A stretch of DNA of 44,755 nucleotides from the IMG/VR virus record IMGVR_UViG_3300020215_000077, positions 1 through 44,755 of that record. One strand, written 5' to 3'. A program made the position numbers and the translations under genes. The DNA is from a virus. Positions within the stretch are counted from its first letter, which is position 1. The number at the start of each line of letters is the position of its first letter. Positions 3,781 through 28,365 of this stretch are shown one piece after another. Below the pieces are notes generated by a model, which had not been told where the DNA came from, searched no databases, and saw nothing but the letters and a program-made list of their open reading frames with translations.

Positions 3781-5088
3781 GTGATTTGCCCGATCTGCCG
3801 CAACACCGGCGCGGACTGGAAGAACGTTGACCAGTTCCGCCTCAAGCCCGAGGGGATGGCGCTCTGCGACATCTGCGGGTTCATCTCGTATCCGAAAAAG
3901 TACCGCTCCAAGAGCGAGATCGTCGCTTACTACAAGAAGGACTACCGGGCGCCGCCCAACGCCAGCAACGTCCACACGTCGATCCGTAAGGTCCAGTACC
4001 ACGCCCACTTCCTGGCGGACGTCATCAAGGAGTGGCGCGCCGCCGGCAGGAAAGCCGTCGTCACCGACGTCGGCTCGGCGTTCGGCTACTTCCTGAACTG
4101 GATCCGCGGCGAGCTCCCGGGCTCGGAGGTCTGCGGGGTCGAACTGACGACGAGCTATGTGCGCGCGGCCTGGAACCGCTACCAGATCAAAACCACCGAC
4201 GAATTCGACGATTCCCGCCAATACGACCTCGTGGCCTCCTACAAGAGCCTAGAGCACATCCTCGATCCCGACGTCGAGCTGCGGCGCTACATCAAGGCGC
4301 TGAAGCCCGACGGCTTCCTCTACCTCTCGGTGCCGCTCTGGTTCGAGCAGATGAAGAACTTCGGGATGAACGGCTTTGACCTCGAGTACTACTACTCGCC
4401 AAACCACATCAACACCTGGACCCGAAAGCACTTCGAGGGTCTCATCCGGGTCTCGGGCGGCGAGATCGTGAAGCAGAACGACTCCTACTACGAGGCCACC
4501 TACCTCGTGAAACGAAACGATGCGCTCGTCACCGACGACCGCTCGTCGCTCTTCGAGAACCCCGAAGAGATCATCGAGAAGATGACCCGCCTGCAGCAAG
4601 CCTCAGAGGCCTACCAGGCGGGCGACTTTCGGAAGGTCCTAGAGCTCTGGCCCAACTGCCCCTCGGCCTGGTCCACCCATTACGAGATGAACCGCAAGCA
4701 GCTCCACGACCTAGGCTTTGACTACATCTACAAGGAGATCTGCGTCGGCGCGATCGACGCCACCGGCGGCGACGCAGACGCCCACTGGCTCGCGGCCGAC
4801 ATCTGCGCCCGTTACGATCGATACGATGCGGCTATACAGCACCTGAACGAGGCCAACCGCCTGCGCCCCAACATGCCGCATGTTTTCGGGGCTCTGGTGA
4901 ACTACCTCGGCGCCCTCGGCAAATTGGCGAAGGACGAGAAGGCCAAGGTAAACTTTTTCATGCAGGCCCGTCAGGCCGCGCGGATCCTGGGCGAGATCGC
5001 TCCGGAGCACAAGACCGAGGCGCTCACGCTCGAGCTCTACTACGACTCCCACGTCCCGACCCCGTGGGAGCAGCAGGCAGCAGGGTAA
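3781..5088 (+). CDS. Zn-ribbon plus class I SAM-dependent methyltransferase with a TPR-like helical C-terminal region
   Basis: CPICRN...CDICGF zinc ribbon. Motif I-like VTDVGSAFGYF, with DLVASYKSLEHI and LKPDGFLYLSVP downstream. GTG 3781 follows SD GAGGTGA, and the ORF-track start 3715 overlaps the upstream gene. Confidence 0.8.
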   Translation: MICPICRNTGADWKNVDQFRLKPEGMALCDICGFISYPKKYRSKSEIVAYYKKDYRAPPNASNVHTSIRKVQYHAHFLADVIKEWRAAGRKAVVTDVGSAFGYFLNWIRGELPGSEVCGVELTTSYVRAAWNRYQIKTTDEFDDSRQYDLVASYKSLEHILDPDVELRRYIKALKPDGFLYLSVPLWFEQMKNFGMNGFDLEYYYSPNHINTWTRKHFEGLIRVSGGEIVKQNDSYYEATYLVKRNDALVTDDRSSLFENPEEIIEKMTRLQQASEAYQAGDFRKVLELWPNCPSAWSTHYEMNRKQLHDLGFDYIYKEICVGAIDATGGDADAHWLAADICARYDRYDAAIQHLNEANRLRPNMPHVFGALVNYLGALGKLAKDEKAKVNFFMQARQAARILGEIAPEHKTEALTLELYYDSHVPTPWEQQAAG

Positions 5089-6032: not shown

Positions 6033-7031
6033 ATGGACGGCAGGCAAACGCAGCGAGGCCTCGCCACGACTATGAGGGTCGTGGCGGGCCTCATCCTCGT
6101 CTCGGTCGTCGCGGCCTGTGGACGGGACCGCGCACCTGAGTCGTCGAACTACCAGTTCCTACCAGCTGCCGAGGACTTGGCAAGCTTAGGCGAGAAGCCT
6201 GCCGAAATCCTCAGGCGCTTCCGCTCTCGCTTCCTCGAGGGGGGCCAGGTCGTCTCCCGGCGCGGTGACGTGCCCGAGCACCTGGGCGACGCTCTCATCT
6301 GGTCGGGCGTAGCGCTCGCGGCCCTCTCTTGCGAAGAGGGCCAGGTCGTCGAGGACGCCCTGGCCGCCATGACCAATCGCTATGGCACCTTCGTACGCTT
6401 CTCGCCGCTTCCCGCCAAGTACATGGGCAACGAGGTCTCGCCCGACGGCGTGATCGGCGTCACTTACGGGCTGGCCTCGCGCCTTAGGCGATGTCCTGAG
6501 CGACGCGCAGCGATCACCGCCATCTGGCGGCAGCACCGCGAGTTCGTCGCTGCCCACGGCGGCCAGCTATACCCGGGCGCTCAGTACGGCACGCTCGTGG
6601 ACGGTCTCAACACGCCCGGCGAGCTCTTAGCTCATCAGCTGGACTTTCGCAGCAGCGTGCATTCCGACGGTCTCACGGCGCTCGACACGGTGGTCGTCGG
6701 CTGGGCCTTCTTCACCGTGCAGAAGCGGGTCAGCTGCTACCGAATTCATATTGGCCTGCTCGCGTGGCTCGCCGCAGACGTCCTAGGCGCGCCGCCATCG
6801 GAGTCAGCAAAGGCGCGCCTGTGCCGGGTTACGGACAAATCCGGACAAGCGCTCGCAGATTTTGTGTGTGCTCGGCTATCCGGTAAAATGTTTCTCGAAG
6901 CATACCAACTCAATCAGTGGGAGTACGCGGCGCAGCGCTGCACGGCGTGGGAGTCACCCGATGGCCAGGAAGGCCTCGAGACACCTGCTCTGGACTACCT
7001 GCTGATTCATCACCTGGCCAGGAGGGCCTAG
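6033..7031 (+). CDS. Putative lipoprotein, function unknown
   Basis: Signal-peptide-like MRVVAGLILVSVVAAC with a lipobox-like VAAC. GGAGG lies 7 nt upstream of ATG 6033. Confidence 0.65.
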   Translation: MDGRQTQRGLATTMRVVAGLILVSVVAACGRDRAPESSNYQFLPAAEDLASLGEKPAEILRRFRSRFLEGGQVVSRRGDVPEHLGDALIWSGVALAALSCEEGQVVEDALAAMTNRYGTFVRFSPLPAKYMGNEVSPDGVIGVTYGLASRLRRCPERRAAITAIWRQHREFVAAHGGQLYPGAQYGTLVDGLNTPGELLAHQLDFRSSVHSDGLTALDTVVVGWAFFTVQKRVSCYRIHIGLLAWLAADVLGAPPSESAKARLCRVTDKSGQALADFVCARLSGKMFLEAYQLNQWEYAAQRCTAWESPDGQEGLETPALDYLLIHHLARRA

Positions 7032-7341: not shown

Positions 7342-7569
7342 ATGTCGTGGCTGTCTATCCTGCTGCTCGTGATCCGCTACCTCCCGGCGGCGATCTCCAT
7401 CATCCGGGAGATCATCCGGCTCATCGATGGTCTGCGTAAGAGCGATGCTGTCGGTGCCGCGGCCCTGCGCGCCAAGCTCGAAGAGGCGGTGGACGAGGCG
7501 GCGCGGACCGGCAGCGTTGGCCCGCTCAGGCGGCTGCTCGCCCAGGCGCGCGAAGGCAGGCGACTCTGA
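7342..7569 (+). CDS. Small membrane protein, holin candidate
   Basis: ATG 7342 follows GGAGGG. N-terminal hydrophobic segment SWLSILLLVIRYLPAAISII, then a charged tail. Confidence 0.55.
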   Translation: MSWLSILLLVIRYLPAAISIIREIIRLIDGLRKSDAVGAAALRAKLEEAVDEAARTGSVGPLRRLLAQAREGRRL

Positions 7570-7853: not shown

Positions 7854-8402
7854 TCAGACCACATGCGTCCAGATCCGGCCATTCTTGATGTTTCTGACAA
7901 CCGTCCAATCGACGCCGAAACGAGCCGCGATGGCTTTGCAGCTCAGGCCCGAGGCGTAGAGGGTCCTGATCTCGCGAACCGCATTCTCGGTCAGCTTCGC
8001 TTGATGATTGCGCTCCCCGAGCATAGCGGTTCCGTGCACGCGCTTGTGGAGGATGTTTTCCCGCACCGTCACCCACGCCAGATTCTCAATGCGGTTGTCT
8101 GTGCGGCACCCGTTCAGGTGCGCCGCCTGCATTCCTGCGGGGCGCAGGCCGGCGAATGCCTCAAGAACGAGCGTGTGGATGTGCGTTGGCCGCTGTTGGC
8201 GCGGCGGTCTCGTAAGCGTGACCCGCGTGTAACCAGTGTTGTGCGCACTCGGCTTGAGAAGGCGGCCGCGCGACAACTTGATGCTGTGTAGGGAGCGTAC
8301 GCGGCCAAGGCACGAGACCTCGTACAGACCTTCGTATCCAACAACCGGCCGCCACACCTCTGCGGCGAAATAGTGGCTCAAGGGCGGATCGACTGAAGGC
8401 AC
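7854..8402 (-). CDS. HNH homing endonuclease (NUMOD4-like N-terminus, HNH_3 core, C-terminal HTH)
   Basis: Motifs WRPVVGYEGLYEVSCLGRVRS, HIHTLVLEAFAG...HLNGCRTDNRIENLAWVT..EN and a C-terminal HTH-like SGLSCKAIAARFGV. The start is placed at GTG 8402 (GGGAG upstream). The maximal ORF extends to 8510 and would overlap the endolysin start. Confidence 0.8.
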   Translation of the reverse strand: MPSVDPPLSHYFAAEVWRPVVGYEGLYEVSCLGRVRSLHSIKLSRGRLLKPSAHNTGYTRVTLTRPPRQQRPTHIHTLVLEAFAGLRPAGMQAAHLNGCRTDNRIENLAWVTVRENILHKRVHGTAMLGERNHQAKLTENAVREIRTLYASGLSCKAIAARFGVDWTVVRNIKNGRIWTHVV

Positions 8403-13426: not shown

Positions 13427-13551
13427 CCCCCGAAATCCCCACCTGGGCCTGGCGCGCCGCGGCCATCATCTTCGCCCTCTCGACGGCGCTGCTGGGGCTG
13501 GCGCTGGTGGCGGTGGGGTGGCGGGAGGAACTAACGCATGACGACGGCTAA
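13423..13551 (+). CDS. Small membrane protein (42 aa)
   Basis: ATGA overlap with the upstream gene and a single TM, AAAIIFALSTALLGLALVAVG. Confidence 0.45.
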   Translation: MTPEIPTWAWRAAAIIFALSTALLGLALVAVGWREELTHDDG

Positions 13552-14069
13552 CGCCGCCAAGGCATTGTGATGTCTTTCTCGCTCAAATCCATCGCCGCCA
13601 TGATCTTGAAGATCGTGGTTTGGCGCGGAATCGACACCGAGCGGAAGAATCGGCTAAGCGACGGCTGGGGGATTCCCGTCGCCCGCGCCAGCTTCGCAAC
13701 GCCGCCCCACTTGTCCACGCGCACCCGCAGCGCGTCTTTGAACGCCTTAATTTCTGCGGCCATGTCGTCGATCTCGTTGTACCGCACCTTTGGCCGAACC
13801 GTGGGCCGGTCCTCGATGGCGCGATGGTCGCGGCTCTCGTCGATCTGCTCTTGCAGGTCGGCGATGATCTCCCCTCGCGCCTTCTTGGTCTTTGCTTCGG
13901 ACCAGAGAAACATGAGGTCTCGAACGCCTTCGTACTTGGCAGCGAGACCGAGCGCCGCGTGGATGAACGTGGAGTCCAGGCCGGCATCGGCCATAGCAGC
14001 GCCGATGCGGTACAGCGCCGAATCCTTTGAGCGGCGGGCGGCGGACATGTTGGCGGCGTTTGCGCTCAT
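13548..14069 (-). CDS. HigA-like antitoxin / regulator with a C-terminal XRE HTH
   Basis: C-terminal GGVAKLARATGIPQPSLSRFFRS..IPRQTTIFKIMAAMDL. The gene is translationally coupled to the upstream minus-strand gene. Confidence 0.6.
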   Translation of the reverse strand: MSANAANMSAARRSKDSALYRIGAAMADAGLDSTFIHAALGLAAKYEGVRDLMFLWSEAKTKKARGEIIADLQEQIDESRDHRAIEDRPTVRPKVRYNEIDDMAAEIKAFKDALRVRVDKWGGVAKLARATGIPQPSLSRFFRSVSIPRQTTIFKIMAAMDLSEKDITMPWRR

Positions 14070-14485
14070 AGAGTCCCCCTCAAGGTGAAACTGCCCTCGC
14101 GGATCTTTTGGACATGAATCTTCAGCTTCGCCATTTCTCGAGCTTCGGCGTCCTTATTCGTGTAGGCGCTGCACAGGAACACCTGCTCGTCGTAGATCAC
14201 GATGCAGAGGCGCAGCTGCTTCGTCTTGCCGCCGTTCAGATTGTGCCACTTCATCTTGTACGCGTACTGGATGATGCCGCCGCGGCCCGTCGCGACCGAC
14301 CACGACTTGTTGTTGTTGGGCGCCAGTTCCGGGTGCTGGGAGGGATAGCCATCGCGGAGCAGGAGCACGCGAGGGCGGATGACGGTCCTGTACTCCTCGT
14401 GAGTGAACGCCTGGTTTTTCCGCAGCTCGAAGAACGAGGCCAAGCCCCATTCAGTGATGATGATCGGCCATCGCTCTTTGGTCAC
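14066..14485 (-). CDS. RelE/HigB-superfamily-like toxin candidate (gp49-like C-terminal core with an N-terminal extension)
   Basis: KTKQLRLCIVIYDEQVFLCSAYTNKD resembles the RelE/gp49 core. GTG 14485 is preceded by GGAGG (maximal ORF extends to 14527). The gene sits upstream of an HTH partner, as in higBA. Confidence 0.45.
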   Translation of the reverse strand: MTKERWPIIITEWGLASFFELRKNQAFTHEEYRTVIRPRVLLLRDGYPSQHPELAPNNNKSWSVATGRGGIIQYAYKMKWHNLNGGKTKQLRLCIVIYDEQVFLCSAYTNKDAEAREMAKLKIHVQKIREGSFTLRGTL

Positions 14486-14626
14486 GGCGCCTCCCGTCTC
14501 AGTCAATATAACATATCGGCATAACATTCAATAACCTTGAGTAACTTTTCATAACATTGCATACCCTATGAAGAATCCGGATAGCCGAGCAATGGCCCTC
14601 GAAGCCTGGCGCGCGGGGCGGACGTC
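14486..14626. promoter_or_regulatory. AT-rich divergent control region with CATAACATT direct repeats
   Basis: CATAACATT at 14520-14528 and 14550-14558 (30 bp apart), plus ATAACAT at 14508-14514. By eye this is one of the lowest-GC stretches in the window. It lies between divergent gene starts at 14485 (-) and 14627 (+). Weak -35/-10-like hexamers occur on both strands (TTGAGT at 14537; TATATT on the minus strand). Confidence 0.5.
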
Positions 14627-14821
14627 GTGAAGCTGCATTTCCTCCTCAACGAACAGGACCTGAAGGCCGCGTGCGGGATGGTCGTCGGCGACAGCGAGCG
14701 AAAGCTTTGGACGACGGTTCCGCGCTACTTCTGGTCGGTCTCCGAGGTCGAGCGGTGCCGGCTGTGCCGTTGGGTCATTGGAGTACGTGCCATGAAGAAG
14801 ACGAAAGCGAGGCGCCCATGA
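14627..14821 (+). CDS. Hypothetical early protein
   Basis: 64-aa ORF with a GTG start after GGGGCGGA. First gene of the rightward early array. Confidence 0.5.
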   Translation: MKLHFLLNEQDLKAACGMVVGDSERKLWTTVPRYFWSVSEVERCRLCRWVIGVRAMKKTKARRP

Positions 14822-21165: not shown

Positions 21166-21762
21166 ATGATCGCCGGCCCGGTCCCGCACACCGCCCTAGA
21201 CGACCTGCTCGCACGCTTCCGTGACGCGCCCGCTCTTCTCACCTTCGACGAGCTCATGATCATCGACGACGCCGTCAACGGCGCCGAGGTGGTCTTCTCG
21301 CCCGCGCAACGCCAACTGCTCGACGATCTCCTGGCCGCCAAGCATGACGGCTGGGCGCTCTACCTCGATGCCGTATGGACGGAGCGAGAGCGCATGAAGA
21401 AGTGGGAGGACCGCTTCGCCGAGCAGAAGAAGGCCGCCGAGCGCCGCTACGACCAGAAGGCGCAACGCTATGCCGAGATCCTCCGGGCGCGCGGCCGCGA
21501 CCGCGCCGAGGGCGAGATGAGCCGCTCATGGCTCAAGGTCGGCAGGCCGGTGGAGACGACGCGCGAACCGACGGACGAGGACGCTCTCTCGCTGGCGCCG
21601 TTCGTTCGCTCGAAGCTCATTCACGCCTGGGACAAGAAGGCGATCCTGGCTGCGATCGACGAGGCGAAGAAGGCCGGAAAGCCCGCCCCGTTTGACTTTG
21701 CCGTCGTCCGCGAAACCTACTCACCGCAGTTCGAGATCCTCACCAGAAGGGACAAGAAATGA
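21166..21762 (+). CDS. Hypothetical protein
   Basis: 198-aa ORF with AGGAGAA SD. First gene after the tandem hairpins. Confidence 0.6.
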   Translation: MIAGPVPHTALDDLLARFRDAPALLTFDELMIIDDAVNGAEVVFSPAQRQLLDDLLAAKHDGWALYLDAVWTERERMKKWEDRFAEQKKAAERRYDQKAQRYAEILRARGRDRAEGEMSRSWLKVGRPVETTREPTDEDALSLAPFVRSKLIHAWDKKAILAAIDEAKKAGKPAPFDFAVVRETYSPQFEILTRRDKK

Positions 21763-22601
21763 CCACCGCACTTCAGCGCCGAGAGGCCGGCGCCGTCGAG
21801 ACCTACGGGATGGAACAGGCGAAGGTCGATCTCATCAAACGCACGATCGCCAAGGGCGCCACGGACGACGAGCTGCAGCTGTTCCTCTATCACTGCGCCA
21901 AGACCGGCCTCGACCCGATGGCCAAGCAGATTTACTTCCGCAAGACGAGAAGCCGGGGCGAGGAGCAGCTGACGATCATCACCGGGATCGACGGCTACCG
22001 CCTCATCGCCGACCGAACGGGCAAGTACGCCGGCTCCGACGAACCCGAGTTCGACGACGAGACCAACCCCACGAAGGCTACGGTGACGGTCTACAAGCTG
22101 GTCGGCGGCGTGCGCTGCCCCTTCACCGCCTCGGCACGGTGGGCGCAGTACTACCCCGGCGACTCCCAGGGCTTCATGTGGCGCAAGATGCCGCATCACA
22201 TGCTGGCCAAGTGCGCCGAGGCGCTCGCGCTCCGCAAGGCATTCCCCGCCGAGCTCGGGGGCCTCTACACGAAAGAGGAGATGGACCAGGCGCGCGGCGA
22301 AAGCGTCGAGGACGGGCCGCAGGAGCCGATCCTGGTGAACGGGAACAGCGCTGCCGCGCCGGAGCCAGCGAAGAAGAAGCTCGGCCCCAACGACTACGAC
22401 GACGAGAACCTGGGGCGCCGGCGCATGCTCGAGGGCTGGCTGAAGACGAAGGGCATGCACGAGAAGCTCTGGGAGCCGATCCGCAAAGCCTGCCACGGCC
22501 AGCCGCTGGATCAAGCAAAGACGATCGCCACGCGGATCTACGACGAAGCGTGTGCGGCCGAGGCCGAGGCGCAGATCGCGCGCGACGCGTTCGCGGAGTG
22601 A
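21759..22601 (+). CDS. recT: RecT/Bet-family single-strand annealing recombinase
   Basis: ATDDELQLFLYHCAKTGLDPMAKQIYF...ITGIDGYRLIADRTGKYAG...HMLAKCAEALALRKAFP is the typical RecT core. Confidence 0.85.
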   Translation: MTTALQRREAGAVETYGMEQAKVDLIKRTIAKGATDDELQLFLYHCAKTGLDPMAKQIYFRKTRSRGEEQLTIITGIDGYRLIADRTGKYAGSDEPEFDDETNPTKATVTVYKLVGGVRCPFTASARWAQYYPGDSQGFMWRKMPHHMLAKCAEALALRKAFPAELGGLYTKEEMDQARGESVEDGPQEPILVNGNSAAAPEPAKKKLGPNDYDDENLGRRRMLEGWLKTKGMHEKLWEPIRKACHGQPLDQAKTIATRIYDEACAAEAEAQIARDAFAE

Positions 22602-22644
22602 GGGGGTGTTGGGTTGGGGTTACACGCCGACGGGAGGTGGCGAG

Positions 22645-23508
22645 GTGAGGATCAGGACGATCAAGCCGCAGTTTTGGACGTCTGGGGACATCAAGCGGCA
22701 GAGCGACAGCGTCGCCCTCTTCTTTATCGGCCTCTGGAACGCCGCCGACGACGAAGGGAAGCTCAAGTATGACCCTGTGGAAATCTCCGCGCGGCTAGGC
22801 GGTAGGTGGGACGCGGGTAAGGTGCGGCTCTTCGTCGGCAAGCTAGTGGCTGGCGGTCAGATCATCGTCAGCCAGGACTCGGGTTGGCTTCGGGTCGTCA
22901 ACTGGTCGCATCAGAAGATCAACAGGCCGCTTCGGCCTTCCGTGAAAGTGGAAGAAATCGAATGGCTTACGAAGCGTGATTCACTGAACGCTCACGACAA
23001 TTCGATGAGCGCTCACTGCAAGTATAGGAAGGGAAAGGAAGGGAAAAGGAAGGGAAGGGATTCCCTTACGGGGCAGACCCCCTTCGCTGAAGGGGGATCC
23101 GCTGGCGAGGAAAGCCCCCCGGCTGAGCTAGCCCCCAAGAAACCCCGCGCCCTCCCCTCGGCCGAGACGAAGACCGGCCGGACGTGGGCGGCCTACTCGC
23201 AGGCCTACCGGCTTCGCTACGGCGAGGAGCCGGCGCGCAACGCCAAGGGCTTCGGCATCTGCTCGCAGCTCGTGGACCGTCTGGGCGCCGAGGAGGCTCC
23301 CGAAGTCGCCGCCTTCTATGTCGGCCACAACGACAGCTTCTACGTCCGCTCCCTTCACCCGCTCTCACTCCTCCTGCGCGACGCCGAGAAGCTTCGGACC
23401 GAGTGGAAGGTCGGCCGCCAGATGACGCAGACGACCGCCCGCCGCGTCGAGCAGGCGCAGTCCAACGCCGACGCCATCCGCGATTACCTCGCCGACGAGG
23501 GGGCGTAG
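22645..23508 (+). CDS. Putative replication initiator / replisome organiser
   Basis: N-terminal IKPQFWTSGDI...ALFFIGLWNAADDEGKL motif. Position is between recT and downstream replication-region genes. GTG 22645 follows GGGAGGTGG. Confidence 0.5.
   Translation: MRIRTIKPQFWTSGDIKRQSDSVALFFIGLWNAADDEGKLKYDPVEISARLGGRWDAGKVRLFVGKLVAGGQIIVSQDSGWLRVVNWSHQKINRPLRPSVKVEEIEWLTKRDSLNAHDNSMSAHCKYRKGKEGKRKGRDSLTGQTPFAEGGSAGEESPPAELAPKKPRALPSAETKTGRTWAAYSQAYRLRYGEEPARNAKGFGICSQLVDRLGAEEAPEVAAFYVGHNDSFYVRSLHPLSLLLRDAEKLRTEWKVGRQMTQTTARRVEQAQSNADAIRDYLADEGA
23026..23060 (+). repeat. 35-nt uninterrupted polypurine tract with GGAAGGGAA iterations, inside the initiator-like gene
   Basis: aggaagggaaaggaagggaaaaggaagggaaggga, encoding KGKEGKRKGR. 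Confidence 0.9.
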
Positions 23509-23510
23509 CC

Positions 23511-24074
23511 GTGGACCCGAAGCTGCGCTTTCTCGAGATGCTCAACACGGTGGCCGCGCTAGCCAACGTCTCGCTCACAAAGACCCTGGTCGGAGTCTAC
23601 GTGGAGGAGCTCGAACCCGTCGGCCTCGAGCGCGCCACCGCCGCCCTCCGCCGCTACGCCACGAAGACGACCCCGCGCACCGGACTGCCGACCGTCGAGC
23701 AGATCAAGGCGGACCTGGGTGCCGCCGAGCCCTCGGACGAGTCCAAGGCGCGCGACGCCGTAAGCCGCATCATCCAGGCGATCTCGGTCCACGGTTACAA
23801 CTGGCCCGAGAGAGCCCAGGCCGCCGTCGGCACGCTCGGCTGGGAACTCGTGCGCCGCGCCGGGGGCTGGGAGGCGATCTGCCAGGAATACACCTACGCG
23901 AAGGAGCACGCAGTGCTCGCCGCCCAGTGGCGCGAACTCGCCAAATCGCTGCTTGAAAGAGCCCGCACCGGCCAGCTGGACACCGCGCCGTCGCTCTACC
24001 CGGCCGAGACGGCAGGGGTCGTCTCGAAGGCCCTCACCCTGGCTCTAAACGGCGGGAAGGGCCGTGAGCCATGA
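23511..24074 (+). CDS. Hypothetical protein (replication region)
   Basis: GTG 23511 lies just after the upstream stop; 187 aa. Confidence 0.55.
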   Translation: MDPKLRFLEMLNTVAALANVSLTKTLVGVYVEELEPVGLERATAALRRYATKTTPRTGLPTVEQIKADLGAAEPSDESKARDAVSRIIQAISVHGYNWPERAQAAVGTLGWELVRRAGGWEAICQEYTYAKEHAVLAAQWRELAKSLLERARTGQLDTAPSLYPAETAGVVSKALTLALNGGKGREP

Positions 24075-24303
24075 GCGTCGGTGGGCGCCTTGCTATCTCT
24101 GCCAGGGAACCGGGACGGTCCTGGCGCTCAAGCGCGACTACCTTCTCGGCTCGGCATTTGCGTTCGCCTGCTCGTGCGATGAGGGCCGGAAGTGGCCGGC
24201 ATATCCCTCGTGGCGGCAGGAGCTCAGAGAGCAGTTCGTGCCCCGCTGGGAGCATCTCATGGCCGAGCGCCGCATGAAGGAGGACCCGACGTGCGTACCC
24301 TGA
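24064..24303 (+). CDS. Small DnaJ-type zinc-finger (CxxCxGxG) protein
   Basis: CYLCQGTG motif plus additional Cys (ACSCDEG). Confidence 0.5.
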   Translation: MSHERRWAPCYLCQGTGTVLALKRDYLLGSAFAFACSCDEGRKWPAYPSWRQELREQFVPRWEHLMAERRMKEDPTCVP

Positions 24304-24440
24304 TCCGCTGGCTCCGCATCAAGCTTGCCGTCCGCCGCCGAAGGCGCCTCGAGGTCCGCATCAACCCGACCCGCAGGCTTCCCCTGATCCGGGCGAGCGA
24401 TCTCTACCGGGCGCAGCGAATCGAGGAGGGCGCGCCGTGA
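24291..24440 (+). CDS. Small basic protein (49 aa)
   Basis: GTG 24291 follows GAAGGAGGA. Arg-rich. Confidence 0.4.
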   Translation: MRTLIRWLRIKLAVRRRRRLEVRINPTRRLPLIRASDLYRAQRIEEGAP

Positions 24441-24766
24441 CCAGCAGCCTGAATAGCTTCGACCGCGAGTTGATCAACCTCGAGTCCGCGCTGTGGGACA
24501 AGGAAGCCGAGATCAGGCTGGCCGAGGACATCATCGGCCAGCTTACGGACATCCAGTCCCTCCTAAGCGAAGAGCAGCGACCGACCGTCGGCCCGCACGT
24601 CGCCAAGGCAATCGAGAGCGCCGAGAAGGACCTAGCCGAGATCGAGAAGCAGCTGGAGGAGGCGACCGACGAGTACAACGCGGCTCTCCGCCGGCGCGGC
24701 TTCCAGTCGGAGGACCAGTGGCACATGGAGCTGGAAAGGCGGTTGAGCGTCGTCGAGCTTGATTGA
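24437..24766 (+). CDS. Coiled-coil protein
   Basis: GTGA overlap with the upstream gene; 109 aa, acidic and helical. Confidence 0.55.
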   Translation: MTSSLNSFDRELINLESALWDKEAEIRLAEDIIGQLTDIQSLLSEEQRPTVGPHVAKAIESAEKDLAEIEKQLEEATDEYNAALRRRGFQSEDQWHMELERRLSVVELD

Positions 24767-24813
24767 ATCGCGGCGGCAGTGGCGCCGTTCGCGTAACACC
24801 AGAGGGAGATCCC

Positions 24814-25428
24814 ATGAAAACCGTCAACGTCAAGATTCGGGGCGTGAGCCCGCTGCTGCTCAACAAGTTCAAGGACCAGGACGAGATCCCGGCGAAGGTC
24901 ACGAAGGGCAAGAAGGACTACGGCACGCCGCGCGAGCAGGCCGAGAAGACCGCTTACGCCGACGAGGCGACCGGCCGGCTGTGGGTGCCGTGGTCGTGGA
25001 TCTCCGGATGCATTCGCTCAGTGGCGTCGGACTATAAGATCAACGGCTCCCGCAAGAGCGTAAAGTCGGTGTCGAGCGGCGCCGTGCGCCTCACCGACGA
25101 GCGCCTCTTCTTCGATGAGGCCTTCACGATTGCCGACATCGAGGTGGACTCGCGGCCGGCCGTTGTGCAGCGGGCCCGCATCATGCGCCACCGCGCACGG
25201 CTTGAGAACTGGACGCTGTCGTTCGCAGTCGAGGTGGAGGAGGACATCCTCCCGCTCGATCAAGTCCACGAGATCCTCAATGACGCAGGCAAGCGCGCTG
25301 GCCTCGGAGACTACCGCGTCGAGAAGGGTGGGCCGTTTGGCCGCTTCCAGGTCGTCGCGTGGAGCGTGATGAGCGAAGGCCAGGATGCGAAGGTCGAGAA
25401 GTTTGAGCCGAAGAGGAAGCGGGCTTGA
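24814..25428 (+). CDS. Hypothetical protein with Cas7/Csm3-like RAMP motif order (tentative)
   Basis: Ordered motifs resemble Csm3/Cmr4: an N-terminal beta strand VNVKIRGVSPLL, then RLWVPWSWISGCIRS (compare IPGSSxKGxxRS), VRLTDERLFF, RHRARLENWTLSFAVEV, and a Gly-rich C-terminal loop GLGDYRVEKGGPFGRFQV. SD GAGGGAG precedes ATG 24814. Confidence 0.35.
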   Translation: MKTVNVKIRGVSPLLLNKFKDQDEIPAKVTKGKKDYGTPREQAEKTAYADEATGRLWVPWSWISGCIRSVASDYKINGSRKSVKSVSSGAVRLTDERLFFDEAFTIADIEVDSRPAVVQRARIMRHRARLENWTLSFAVEVEEDILPLDQVHEILNDAGKRAGLGDYRVEKGGPFGRFQVVAWSVMSEGQDAKVEKFEPKRKRA

Positions 25429-26125
25429 TGGAGAGGTCCGGCAAGGTTGGGCTTGGCAGGGCATCGCTTGTCGCAGCGGGGCTTGGCAAAGCTCGGCTCG
25501 GTGCGGGCGGGACGGCGAGGCAAGGCAGGGTTTGGTTTCGTATCGTGTGGCTCTGCATGGCAAGACGCGGAAGGCTGGTCGTGGTCCGGCTCGGCACGTT
25601 CAGGCACGGCTTGAATTGGCCTGGCTAGGTTGGGCGCGGACGGATTGGCAAGGCATCGCAGGGCTGGGTCTGGCATGGTCCGGTCCGGCATGGCGAGGAG
25701 CGGATGGAGAGGGATGGCATGGTCAGGCTGGGCTGGGCTCGGTGAGGTTAGTCCTGTCGAGGCGAGGTCTGGGTGGTTCGGCAAAGGAAGGCATCGCGCG
25801 CCACGGTTAGGCAGTGCGTCGCGTGGCTCGGTTGAGTCGGGCTTGGCAAGCCATGGCTCGGTTCTGCGGAGTTCGGCAAGGCTCGGTTCGGATGGTTAGG
25901 CATGGCAGGGTTTCGCGCAGCGGCGCAGGGCGGGGCGCGGTAAGGAAGGCGCGGATGGAATCGGAAGGCCCTGCTTGGCGGGCTTGGGCTCGGCGCGGCA
26001 GGGCATGGCATTGCGTTGTACGGCACGCCTCGGCTGGGCACGGCGTGGAAGCCCCGGATCGGCACGGTACGGCCGGGTTTGGCAAGGCGCACTTTGGCGT
26101 GGCTCGGTAGGGCACGGACGGCGAG
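25429..26125 (+). repeat. ~700-bp non-coding, G-skewed, degenerate short-repeat tract (GGNNN pentamer phasing; TGGCA(N)GG / GGCTCGG words)
   Basis: About 29 GGCA occurrences by hand count. Runs such as ggctc ggctc ggtgc gggcg and ggtcc ggtcc ggcat ggcga ggagc ggatg. G outnumbers C about 2:1 in sampled lines. Overlapping ORFs appear in all six frames, none with a consistent coding frame. Confidence 0.85.
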
Positions 26126-26136
26126 GATCAACAAAC

Positions 26137-26400
26137 ATGACGACCGCAAGTGACAGCGCCTTCCCCTCTGGCGTCCTCATGTCGGAGTCCTGCCCCTACC
26201 AGCGGGGGCTTTCGCGGCGCGACTACTTCGCAGCTCTGGCGATGCAAGGTCTGGCCTCTGACGTCTCGGGTGCCATGGCCAAGCTCGCGGCCAGAAACGG
26301 CGTGCCGCTTACCAAGGTGATCGCGGGTGTGGCGCGAGAGCTGGCCGATGCGCTCGAGGCCGAGCTCAAGCTGCCCACCCAAAAAGGTGAGGGGTCATGA
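26137..26400 (+). CDS. Hypothetical protein (RRDYFAALAMQGL motif common in small phage proteins)
   Basis: ATG 26137 lies at the end of the repeat tract; 87 aa. Confidence 0.55.
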   Translation: MTTASDSAFPSGVLMSESCPYQRGLSRRDYFAALAMQGLASDVSGAMAKLAARNGVPLTKVIAGVARELADALEAELKLPTQKGEGS

Positions 26401-26609
26401 CGATCATCAACCCCGCGCTCACCGCGCCCGCCTGGGCTCGCTACCGCGGCGAGAAGGTGCGGGTGTTCTGGGCGACGAAGAGCGACGAGCACGTCACCTG
26501 CGAGTTCATGACGGGGCCGCACGTCGGCAAGTGGACGTCGGCGGTCAGGAAGGAGCTTGAGCCGTGGGTGGAGGAGTACGAGCCCGAGGACCTGGAGGAG
26601 GGGCGGTGA
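26397..26609 (+). CDS. Hypothetical protein
   Basis: ATGA overlap with the upstream gene; 70 aa. Confidence 0.55.
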   Translation: MTIINPALTAPAWARYRGEKVRVFWATKSDEHVTCEFMTGPHVGKWTSAVRKELEPWVEEYEPEDLEEGR

Positions 26610-26700
26610 GCGGCGTGGCACGGCTAGGCGAGGTCTCGCGAGGCACCGTCTGGTTTGGTTAGGCCTGGTCTGGTGTGGTTTGGACGGCACGGAGGGGCAG
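26610..26700 (+). repeat. Second, short G/T-rich tract of the same word family
   Basis: GGCACGG twice, GGTTTGG twice and GGTTAGGC (also present in the main tract at 25805 and 25893). Confidence 0.75.
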
Positions 26701-26796
26701 ATGGATTGGACGTCGTACGAAACGATCACCTTGTTCTACTTGGCGACCTTCTGCCTCGGCATGGCCACGGGCCTCTGGGCGGCACGTCGATTCTGA
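26701..26796 (+). CDS. Small membrane protein (31 aa)
   Basis: ATG follows GGAGGGG. Single TM, ITLFYLATFCLGMATGLWAA. Confidence 0.4.
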   Translation: MDWTSYETITLFYLATFCLGMATGLWAARRF

Positions 26797-26817
26797 CAAG
26801 CAATCGCGGAGGCTGGT

Positions 26818-27003
26818 ATGCGCAGCTGTAACGGCCAGGGTTTGGCGCTGGACACCCAGCGAGCGATCGACAGGTACGTTTCCGAGGTCGTGGAGGCCAT
26901 CGAATGGGCCATCCACAAGAAGTACATTGAGCAGACGATCCCTGGGTACTTCCCGTGGTTAGAAAAGCAGCAGAGGGAGACGCGCCGTGAGACGAGGCAC
27001 TAG
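26818..27003 (+). CDS. Hypothetical protein
   Basis: 61-aa ORF with GGAGG SD. Confidence 0.5.
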   Translation: MRSCNGQGLALDTQRAIDRYVSEVVEAIEWAIHKKYIEQTIPGYFPWLEKQQRETRRETRH

Positions 27004-27223
27004 CCGGACGCAGGCGGCCGTGGCAGAACAGGCGGGTTCTTTGACAACCAGCGAGCCCCGCTTGCGCTCGGTGAGGGAGGTGGCCGACCTTCTGCGCGTC
27101 TCGGCGAAGACCGTCTACGACTGGACGGCCGACAGGAAGCTCCCCTCCTATAAGCTGGGCAAGCGGGTCTTGATCGACATGGCGGACGTGGAGCGGCTAC
27201 TTGCGCGAGCCAGGACCTTCTAG
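26987..27223 (+). CDS. xis: Excisionase-family (MerR-like HTH_17) DNA-binding protein
   Basis: VREVADLLRVSAKTVYDWTADRKLPSYKLGKRVLI lies directly upstream of the integrase gene. The start is uncertain. Confidence 0.7.
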   Translation: MRRGTSRTQAAVAEQAGSLTTSEPRLRSVREVADLLRVSAKTVYDWTADRKLPSYKLGKRVLIDMADVERLLARARTF

Positions 27224-27231
27224 GAGGTCCC

Positions 27232-28365
27232 ATGCCTATCGAACGCGGAGCCCGCAAGGCCGGCAAGGCCTACCGGGCGGTCTTCAAGGTGCGTCGCACC
27301 CGCTTTCAGTCGCCCTGGTTTCGCTCTGAAGAGGAGGCCAAGGACTGGGAGGCGAGAAAGAGGACCGAGATCCAAGACGGCCAGGTGGTGACCGGCCGCA
27401 AGATCCTGGTCCAAGACTTCACCAAGCTCTGGCTCGAGAAACACGCCTACGCCCGCAAGACCTTCGGCGCTGCCGTGCGCGACGAGTCGGTGACCAGGAA
27501 GTACATCGACCCCCGCTTTGGCTCTCGCCAACTGCGAAGCCTCACCTTCCAGGACCTGGACTTCTTCTTTTCCGAGCTCGCCCGCTCCGGGACGGTGAAG
27601 CCCAAGACGGTGAACAACTGCATCGGCACCGTGAAGAAGATGCTCTCTGATGCCGTGCGCTGGGGGCACCTCTCCTCCTCGCCGGCCGCTGCCCTCAAGC
27701 GCTTTGAGGTGCCAGACGAGGAGGTCACCTACCTCTACCGAGACGAGGTGGCCAAGCTCCTGGCCTACGCGGCTGTCCATCGGCCGCACGAGCACGAGAT
27801 CATCCTCTTCGCCCTGAACACAGGCTGCCGCCTTGGTGAGTGCGTGGCGCTTTCCTGGGGCAAGGTGGACTTGGGACGGCGCACGGCGCTCATCTCGGCC
27901 ACCTGGGCGGACAAGGAAAGACGGGTGGTCGAGCGCACCAAGGGAAAGAGAATCCGTCAGGTGCCCCTCAACTCGGAGGCGCTCTCGCTCTTTCGCCGCA
28001 TGCATCTTCTGGGGCGAAAGGCCGAGGACCTGGTCTTCGCCCGGGTGTCCTACTCGGCGCTCACCAACCACGGCGGCTTTGCCCGGCTACTTCGGCGCTC
28101 GGGCCTCAAGGACGCCTTGGACCGCGGCGCCACCTTCCACTCGCTTCGCCACACATTCGCCTCTGAGTTCATGAGGGCCGGCGGCGGCTTGTGGGACCTG
28201 CAAAAGCTTCTGGGCCACGCGACGATCACCCAGACAGAGAAGTACGCGCACTTTGCCCCTGGCCACACGGCGGGGCTTACCGATCGCGTCGGCTTCGCGA
28301 CACCGCAGGGCGAGAGAGTGCCGGTCCCCACGGCGGTCCCCAAAACGGCGATTTCAGCTTCGTAA
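27232..28365 (+). CDS. int: Tyrosine integrase
   Basis: Catalytic boxes TGCRLGE (Arg), HSLRHTFAS (HxxR) and LLGHATITQTEKYAH (His/Tyr). AGGAGG SD. Confidence 0.9.
   Translation: MPIERGARKAGKAYRAVFKVRRTRFQSPWFRSEEEAKDWEARKRTEIQDGQVVTGRKILVQDFTKLWLEKHAYARKTFGAAVRDESVTRKYIDPRFGSRQLRSLTFQDLDFFFSELARSGTVKPKTVNNCIGTVKKMLSDAVRWGHLSSSPAAALKRFEVPDEEVTYLYRDEVAKLLAYAAVHRPHEHEIILFALNTGCRLGECVALSWGKVDLGRRTALISATWADKERRVVERTKGKRIRQVPLNSEALSLFRRMHLLGRKAEDLVFARVSYSALTNHGGFARLLRRSGLKDALDRGATFHSLRHTFASEFMRAGGGLWDLQKLLGHATITQTEKYAHFAPGHTAGLTDRVGFATPQGERVPVPTAVPKTAISAS

Follow-up and report, generated by a model that had tools for sequence, protein, structure and literature searches.

The closest described relatives of the locus analyzed here are the systems named VIPR, for Viral Interference Programmable Repeat, reported in two preprints of April 2026 (bioRxiv 10.64898/2026.04.26.720920, 10.64898/2026.04.26.720927). 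We examined IMG/VR virus record IMGVR_UViG_3300020215_000077, whose 44,755 nucleotides (nt) are called the window below, and in particular a non-coding tract at positions 25429-26136, which lies between a stop codon (25426-25428) and an ATG at 26137. When this tract and the gene that ends at its 5' edge are considered together, the tract is very probably the guide-RNA array of a phage-encoded VIPR system.

In VIPR systems, the protein component, Vipr, is a minimal RAMP protein with an RRM core, a G-loop, and a thumb, and the guide RNAs, termed vrRNAs, consist of 9 to 16 YNNGG repeats in less than 100 nt, so that a conserved GGY alternates with a hypervariable NN dinucleotide. Tandem runs of at least four such pentamers flank vipr on its own strand. 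One Vipr protomer is bound per repeat and sequesters the GGY. Pairing with double-stranded DNA is by the NN dinucleotides, skips each third base, and forms a gapped R-loop triplex that silences transcription. In the protein of Escherichia phage SUSP1, G1, G2, and Y3 are read through H17, R138, D177, W178, and R179, and K33 is assigned to the skipped base. Expression of vrRNAs and a Vipr-vrRNA complex have been reported; the elements targeted in nature are rival phages, satellites, and prophages, with certain vrRNAs directed against other VIPR systems, and the other VIPR systems described do not target themselves. Target sites usually fall in coding sequence, where the skipped base is the wobble position. 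In type II, though not universally, each repeat tract is followed by a 3' tail of about 40 nt that includes a pseudoknot, and the accessory genes, named vap, typically lie beside vipr and differ between the types, which run from I to VII (bioRxiv 10.64898/2026.04.26.720920, 10.64898/2026.04.26.720927). The legend of Fig. S18 in the first preprint describes tail-less "staggered" arrays with 1-nt offsets in some VIPR types.

A Vipr homologue and its GGY-phased tract

The gene upstream of the tract starts at ATG 24814, which is preceded by a ribosome-binding site (GAGGGAG), and its product matches phrog_4652 (unknown function) and has no Pfam match. A profile of the protein family identifies PDB entry 36pp_D, "SUSP1 Vipr protein," as the single solved structure matched (E 4.5e-11), and the window protein is 27% identical to phiSUSP1 ALH47069.1 by BLASTP (E 3e-15), a relationship also found by tblastn. 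For an AlphaFold2 model with a mean confidence (pLDDT) of 82.6, Foldseek ranks the type III-A CRISPR protein Csm3 and the type VII protein Cas7 highest, with TM scores of about 0.5. In a pairwise alignment, SUSP1 R138/D177/W178/R179 correspond to R127/D166/Y167/R168 of the window protein; among 40 homologues the R, D, and R never vary and the aromatic residue is either Y or F, and the G-loop motif GLGDYR...GGPFGRF is invariant across the family. Sequence comparison makes the product of this gene a homologue of Vipr, and its predicted fold resembles that of Cas7/Csm3.

Placing this protein into the context of its relatives gives additional insight. More than 400 homologues of 186 to 215 amino acids (aa), starting at MKT, are found in metagenomes, many of them on phage-sized contigs. 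Searches of IMG/VR with single-protein patterns gave no close relatives of the window Vipr, and an alignment-based scan of the same collection gave 32 further Vipr loci. Comparison of three homologue contexts found neighboring genes that differ entirely, with each vipr gene directly followed on the same strand by a non-coding tract of 200 to 370 nt phased as GGNNN. Of 36 Vipr loci, set among phage genes that are otherwise unrelated, 31 have a GGY-phased array on the same strand within 600 nt of the gene, and the array is kept beside vipr across proteins that are 30-76% identical. None of six other neighboring open reading frames (ORFs) of the window recurs in Vipr loci from other phages, and the NN strings of the window guides are shared with no other Vipr locus. 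Taken together, the linkage of the array and the non-recurrence of the neighbors indicate that the Vipr protein and the array form a conserved two-part module.

The tract itself had been singled out in a first-pass annotation, made from the letters of the window alone, as G-skewed, phased every 5 nt, dense in GGCA, and without a consistent reading frame. All of these descriptions hold when counted. G outnumbers C by 310 to 165 (T 130, A 103), close to the 2:1 given there, and the resulting GC skew of +0.31 is the maximum of the whole 44.8-kb window. The GGCA count, given by hand as about 29 and several-fold above expectation, is exactly 29, compared with 4.6 +/- 2.0 in mononucleotide shuffles and with 10.7 +/- 2.6 (maximum 19) in 1000 dinucleotide-preserving shuffles; the reverse complement TGCC is absent, and no other 708-nt stretch on either strand of the window approaches this density. 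Of 113 intervals between one GG start and the next, 69 measure 5 nt and a further 16 measure 10 or 15 nt, distances between GGC words are nearly all multiples of 5, and GGY pairs in phase at distance 5 number 57, as against 5.6 +/- 2.3 (maximum 14) in 1000 dinucleotide shuffles. Shuffled sequence was the control that the annotation had itself named as able to refute its description, and both the word enrichment and the periodicity lie far beyond chance. As the annotation also stated, a mini-tract near 26610 is the one comparable feature in the rest of the window.

Segmentation of the tract by dynamic programming divides it into 141 pentamers, 11 tetramers, and 2 hexamers. The pentamer consensus is G-G-Y-N-N: about 110 units begin with GG, 91% of these have Y at position 3, and positions 4 and 5 are approximately random, with the 5-nt register held even through units that lack GG. 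Because the tetramer slips reset the phase about every 60 nt, Fourier analysis of the whole tract gives no more than a modest peak at period 5 (z of about 3). GC content at third codon positions is flat from 25450 to 26150, at 0.6 to 0.75 in all three frames, while the flanking genes reach 0.8 to 0.98 in one frame; the tract is therefore untranslated in any frame, and a coding region was rejected. Predicted folding energy is no better than in shuffles (z = -0.29), and a structured RNA was rejected on this basis. No Rfam family reached gathering thresholds in the whole window and none appeared at E <= 1 in 24700-27000, a span in which Rfam also found no hammerhead ribozymes, which lie between vrRNAs and mark VIPR types I and V. 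Tandem Repeats Finder (TRF) detected no near-identical tandem copies in the main tract.

The homology of the protein to Vipr, its conserved linkage to such tracts, the conservation of the GGY-reading R, D, aromatic, and R residues, and the GGY/NN phase thus combine to identify the tract as a vrRNA array and the locus as a VIPR system. The published mechanism would then be expected to hold here as well. The + strand of the tract would be transcribed, most likely together with vipr in an early operon; no sigma-70-like promoter and no intrinsic terminator on the + strand were found from 23400 to 27400, which makes it plausible that the tract is transcribed along with the upstream gene. Vipr protomers would polymerize along each vrRNA, one per pentamer, sequestering G-G-Y and presenting the free NN of each repeat outward, and the concatenated NN could pair with a double-stranded DNA target as xNN xNN, in a gapped R-loop that blocks transcription.

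Guide targets and alternative readings

Parsing the array at its GGAN tetramers divides it into modules (Table 1), each of which may represent a guide, and application of the published rule for converting a guide to its target (GGY becomes n, NN is kept) links one of them to a defined gene family. The NN string of module v5 reads GA AT AT CA TG TG TC GA TA CT GA GA CT. As an exact pattern with 1-nt skips it has 4 matches in IMG/VR, and as an exact 11-unit pattern it has at least 60 in species genomes. All 64 matches listed, of 10 to 11 units each, fall at one site, the codons for [ED][IM]MQWWSDYL[DE] in P4-type tyrosine integrase genes, about a dozen residues from the integrase C terminus and thus at the 3' end of the gene. 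The matched integrases carry Arm-DNA-bind_3, Phage_int_M, and Phage_integrase domains, and the genomes listed with exact matches belong to Enterobacterales, Alcaligenaceae, Alphaproteobacteria, and others.

The bases that v5 would skip are the third (wobble) positions of these codons, which vary among the matches wherever the genetic code permits. Its non-canonical units 10 and 11 (gtcCT and gtcGA) match as well. Over the full length of v5, 22 to 25 of the 26 NN bases match (85-96%), best in GC-rich records: 25 of 26 in contig L042, whose integrase site is CGAGATAATGCAGTGGTGGTCGGACTACCTGGACGA, and 24 of 26 in contig L043 and in an Achromobacter contig. Module v5 does not match the integrase of the window itself, which is of a different family, none of the other window guides matches the 64 integrase loci, and the guides of 33 other Vipr loci show no match to the integrases that v5 matches. 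Module v5 behaves as the natural targets of the preprints would lead one to expect, and we therefore consider it likely, from this pattern of matches, that it is directed at P4-type integrase genes of competing integrative elements.

A v5-guided system would silence the integrases of competing prophages, satellites, or islands, and may in this way block integration or excision of rivals. If this is the case, a single guide that reads codon positions 1 and 2 of EIMQWWSDYLD could silence P4-type integrases across many divergent elements, and the phage would gain a general block on integration and excision of rival prophages, satellites, and islands. A guide that appears aimed at a universally conserved integrase motif suggests that the integration machinery of rivals is open to attack by VIPR, with wobble skipping giving one guide a wide reach.

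Several of the matched integrase genes, in genome loci L062, L076, L093, L084, L091, and L096, have become pseudogenes through in-frame stops in the motif or upstream frameshifts. The conserved site matched by v5 persists in decaying islands too.

Scans of the other guides used exact gapped patterns of 10 units (20 specified bases), or 11 units for the solitary module v12, with no mismatch tolerated. In IMG/VR viral contigs, the patterns of v4, v3, v9, and v1 gave no matches, and that of v10 gave one, in the AT-rich tape-measure gene of contig L039. This match was judged to be chance, as its flanks agree at 0 of 6 positions, its GC content is a misfit, and v10 has no metagenome matches; v4 likewise had none in metagenome contigs, and the 11-unit pattern of v12 had none in species genome contigs. 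With self-targeting defined as an NN match of at least 80%, the best matches of the nine main-array modules to the window (v12 left out) are 0.57 to 0.75, within the range of shuffled guides. The same nine modules found no target in 38 Vipr loci, other vipr genes included.

Several observations weigh against the assignment of the locus as a VIPR system with v5 as an integrase guide. About a quarter of the pentamers lack GG, and two modules, of 18 and 23 units, exceed the published 9 to 16 repeats. SUSP1 H17 and K33 have no clear counterpart in the window Vipr and fall where the alignment is gapped and of low confidence. No conserved neighbor of vipr was found that could be a vap accessory gene, and in sequence comparison the ORF at 26137-26400 shows no similarity to SUSP1 vap1 and has no Pfam match. 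Six guides other than v5 are without a convincing target in the exact 10- to 11-unit scans, which is a weak negative, and the v5 site is too conserved to single out a natural target element or host. The absence of the tail with its pseudoknot and of vap1 marks a different subtype rather than non-membership, because the preprint itself describes tail-less staggered arrays and type-specific vap genes.

Of the alternatives, the one that survives best is a decoy or sponge RNA, whose repeats would soak up an RNA-binding protein of the host or of a rival, such as a RAMP complex or a competing phage's Vipr, respectively. The many degenerate units would suit such a role, as would the finding that six of seven scanned guides have no target in public collections, and the preprints note that vrRNAs can be aimed at other VIPR systems. 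However, the locus has a vipr gene of its own whose product retains the GG-reading residues, the NN dinucleotides are hypervariable and unique to each locus, as for guides and not decoys, and the match of v5 is highly specific and codon-aware, so that a decoy is very unlikely. The first-pass annotation had suggested a structured or sponge RNA bound by the adjacent RAMP-like protein. Its RAMP partner is upheld by the Vipr homology and linkage, its structured RNA is not supported by the folding energy, and its sponge sits poorly with the guide-like behavior of v5. For an RNA anti-CRISPR decoy, also raised there, units resembling CRISPR repeats are absent.

Another suggestion from the same source was an origin of replication or recombination hot spot prone to R-loops or G-quadruplexes. 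On this reading, GG every 5 nt on the non-template strand would give quadruplexes of two tetrads, or would stabilize R-loops that prime replication or favor recombination. The skew, the roughly 110 GG runs on one strand, the lack of TGCC, and the position downstream of a replication module (genes for a Gam-like protein, RecT, and an O-like initiator) could all be accommodated in this way. Quadruplexes need neither G-G-Y with free NN nor a register held through non-GG units, however, and such tracts follow vipr homologues, always on the vipr strand, in phages with different replication modules. The O-like initiator gene has iteron-like repeats of its own at 23026-23060, and one unit, v5, when read by the VIPR code, matches a specific DNA site outside the window. 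An origin leaves the strict GGY with free NN and the linkage to vipr unexplained, and we place it slightly below a decoy in probability. An array of binding sites for a DNA-binding protein does not explain the tract either, since periodic binding of a protein is expected here on RNA and not on DNA. Two further candidates were set aside: a sigma-54 promoter array, suggested by TGGCA, has a -24/-12 spacing that is off by one from the pentamer GG-to-GC distance and was dropped once the link to Vipr appeared, and a cluster of primase sites or of filament sites for RecT or a protein like TRAP (trp RNA-binding attenuation protein) was an analogy only, superseded by the Vipr match.

Least probable of all is a functionless pentanucleotide microsatellite decaying after replication slippage, or a translated stop-poor region, for although ORFs are open in six frames and a short period is typical of slippage, neutral decay would affect all five positions alike, whereas positions 1 to 3 are 75-95% conserved and positions 4 and 5 nearly random, near-identical tandem copies are absent by TRF, the array is conserved beside vipr proteins of such wide divergence, and the tract has no codon-position GC bias.

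Array anatomy and genome context

Assignment of the tract as a vrRNA array allows its internal organization to be described (Table 1). The main array begins 2 nt past the vipr stop codon and ends 7 nt before the ATG at 26137. Module sizes of 16, 11, 13, 12, 13, 23, 10, 18, 13, and 14 units fall within the published range in 8 of 10 cases, and the 23-unit module v6 may be two guides with a decayed delimiter. The modules abut directly, and neither a recurring block of about 40 nt nor a conserved 3' tail after the repeat tracts is found in the window array.

Table 1. Coordinates of the vipr gene, vrRNA modules, and intervening ORF in the window
Feature	Position	Strand	Description
vipr gene	24814..25428	+	204-aa minimal RAMP protein, SUSP1 Vipr homologue; ends at 5' edge of tract
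Main vrRNA array (very probable)	25430..26129	+	~140 GGYNN pentamers, ~10 modules, GGAN tetramers between
v1	25430..25513	+	16 pentamers + GGAC
v2	25514..25572	+	11 pentamers + GGAA
v3	25573..25641	+	13 pentamers + GGAC
v4	25642..25705	+	12 pentamers + GGAT
v5	25706..25774	+	13 pentamers + GGGT; guide part 25706-25770
v6	25775..25893	+	23 pentamers + GGAT
v7	25894..25956	+	10 pentamers + GGAA, then 1-unit remnant + GGAT
v9	25957..26050	+	18 pentamers + GGAA
v10	26051..26129	+	13 pentamers + GGAC, then two terminal units GGCGA GGATC
Solitary vrRNA (v12, mini-tract)	26612..26685	+	14 pentamers + GGAC; begins 2 nt past stop of ORF 26397-26609
ORF	26137-26400		87 aa, between main array and solitary vrRNA; phrog_2201 (unknown function), E 1e-8

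Where the phase of the array slips, the unit responsible is nearly always a GGA[C/T/A] tetramer. In 11 loci from the window Vipr clade, Y occupies position 3 in 518 of 552 GG pentamers and A in 25, and GGAC, GGAT, or GGAA make up 41 of 54 tetramers. The tetramers in these loci are spaced at 44, 49, 54, 59, 64, or 69 nt (5k-1), which corresponds to 9 to 14 repeats per module and agrees with both the published vrRNA size and the staggered arrays with 1-nt offsets. As the position-3 pocket of Vipr excludes purines (bioRxiv 10.64898/2026.04.26.720920, 10.64898/2026.04.26.720927), a GGAN unit would place a purine where it is not accepted and would shift the register by -1. On balance we lean toward reading the GGAN tetramers as guide boundaries, for which they supply a plain sequence rule. 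In that case the RNA sequence alone would determine how long a guide is, with no need for a handle, a ribozyme, or a dedicated nuclease. The combined proposal, that register-breaking GGA[C/T/A] punctuation ends and starts Vipr filaments and that v5 is a broad-spectrum guide to a peptide motif, is more tentative than either part.

In phiSUSP1 (L040, KT454805.2), two of the four vrRNA repeat tracts, at 2330-2400 and 3885-3960, end in GGAT before the tail, reading …GGGT GGAT GGTAGTAGCC and …GGAA GGAT GGCAGTAGCC. A unit of GGA-purine form may therefore be a general end-of-guide signal and not peculiar to tail-less arrays.

The position of arrays relative to vipr varies among related phages. Several of them have two to four vrRNA arrays downstream of vipr that alternate with small ORFs, one such ORF encoding a DUF4120 protein; in L001/L007, separate arrays lie at 6680-6960, 7385-7480, and 8025-8270, and L033 and L036 are likewise multi-array. 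In L014 and L026, arrays are found solely upstream of vipr. Placement of the array is fluid, and its strand is constant.

The genome in the window is that of a temperate phage; it has a GC content of 64%, encodes an integrase, and shows no nucleotide similarity to isolated phages. On the + strand, genes for a Gam-like protein, RecT, and an O-like replication initiator (21166-23508), followed by small ORFs, all precede the tract. Downstream of it are two small ORFs and then the mini-tract, and the + strand genes also include those for a helix-turn-helix excisionase-like protein, a tyrosine integrase, a terminase, and a Mu-like portal protein. The ORF at 26137-26400 carries an RDYFAA…AMQGL motif and is not conserved with vipr; motifs of this type are common among small phage proteins.

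A metagenomic contig of 41,770 bp (L038, Logan SRR7003766) encodes an identical Vipr protein with the same neighboring genes, and its 709-nt tract was likewise left uncalled by the gene caller. The greater length of the window, at 44,755 bp, may reflect terminal redundancy or flanking sequence.

Two other repeat regions of the window can be described. Within the ORF of the O-like initiator (22552-23508), purine-rich tandem repeats of AGGAAGGGAAA, in about 3 copies, occupy 23026-23060 and are followed, up to about 23110, by short inverted repeats, first GGGATTCCC and then GGGGCAGACCCCC and GAAGGGGGATCC. These repeats were picked up by the GG-phase scan yet are not GGY/NN-like, and they are a candidate origin, in a layout that recalls the iteron-containing origin within lambda gene O. 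At 14519-14563, 4.5 copies of the 10-nt unit GCATAACATT lie in an AT-richer gap between leftward genes (13548-14527), one of which encodes an HTH_3 domain, and a rightward gene at 14627. This second region is a candidate operator of a lysis-lysogeny switch.

Comparison with described systems

The most distant comparison is with TRAP, an oligomer that reads (G/U)AG repeats with 2- to 3-nt spacers on single-stranded RNA. TRAP forms a closed ring that reads 11 repeats, the spacers between them are without information content, and DNA is not targeted. Its fold is unrelated to that of Vipr, and the analogy is anatomical alone.

A closer relationship exists with the backbone proteins of Class 1 CRISPR-Cas systems (Cas7/Csm3), which share the RAMP fold, polymerize on a guide RNA, and periodically flip bases out of the guide-target duplex. 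The VIPR period is 5 nt with 3 bases sequestered, compared with 6 nt and 1 flipped base in Class 1 CRISPR. Unlike Class 1 CRISPR, VIPR reads a double-stranded DNA target discontinuously, and neither a large subunit nor a nuclease is evident at the window locus. The window contains no CRISPR repeat-spacer array with direct repeats of 25 to 40 nt, TRF finding no unit longer than 18 nt, and no cas1 or cas2 is present among the ORFs annotated near the locus, the whole window not having been scanned for them. VIPR is a newly reported form of RNA-guided DNA recognition and has been proposed as an ancestor of CRISPR RAMP effectors.

The nearest counterparts are the type II VIPR systems of Escherichia phage SUSP1 and a Pseudomonas fulva prophage. 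As in these, the window locus is phage encoded and combines a minimal RAMP protein of about 200 aa, with R, D, aromatic, and R contacts to G-G-Y, with same-strand arrays of GGY/NN pentamers beside the gene and hypervariable NN. A window guide matches a gene of another mobile element within its coding sequence, the base skipped being the wobble base, and self-targeting is absent, again as in type II. SUSP1 also has one vrRNA set apart from the rest by protein-coding genes, comparable to the solitary vrRNA at 26612.

Differences from type II are equally clear. The window Vipr is just 27% identical to that of SUSP1, and the window has about 11 guides where SUSP1 has 4. The window guides lack the conserved 3' tail of about 40 nt with its pseudoknot, plain in the phiSUSP1 sequence, and are parted instead by GGAN tetramers. 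No vap1 homologue and no conserved neighbor gene were found at the window locus. The predicted target is an integrase motif, compared with a satellite phage or a lysis-lysogeny regulator in the type II systems, and the carrier is a temperate phage that encodes its own integrase and has a GC content of 64%. Each GGAN tetramer of the window shifts the register by -1, as would fit the staggered vrRNA arrays of the Fig. S18 legend, which as such does not confirm the published boundary as GGA[C/T/A].

In conclusion, the locus belongs to a kind of system known since April 2026, and its additions are modest: GGAN punctuation, the lack of a conserved accessory gene, and a likely guide to an integrase motif. 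VIPR loci are recognizable in raw sequence from the GGYNN phase alone, and the window would provide a natural example of VIPR outside the characterized enterobacterial and Pseudomonas type II systems.

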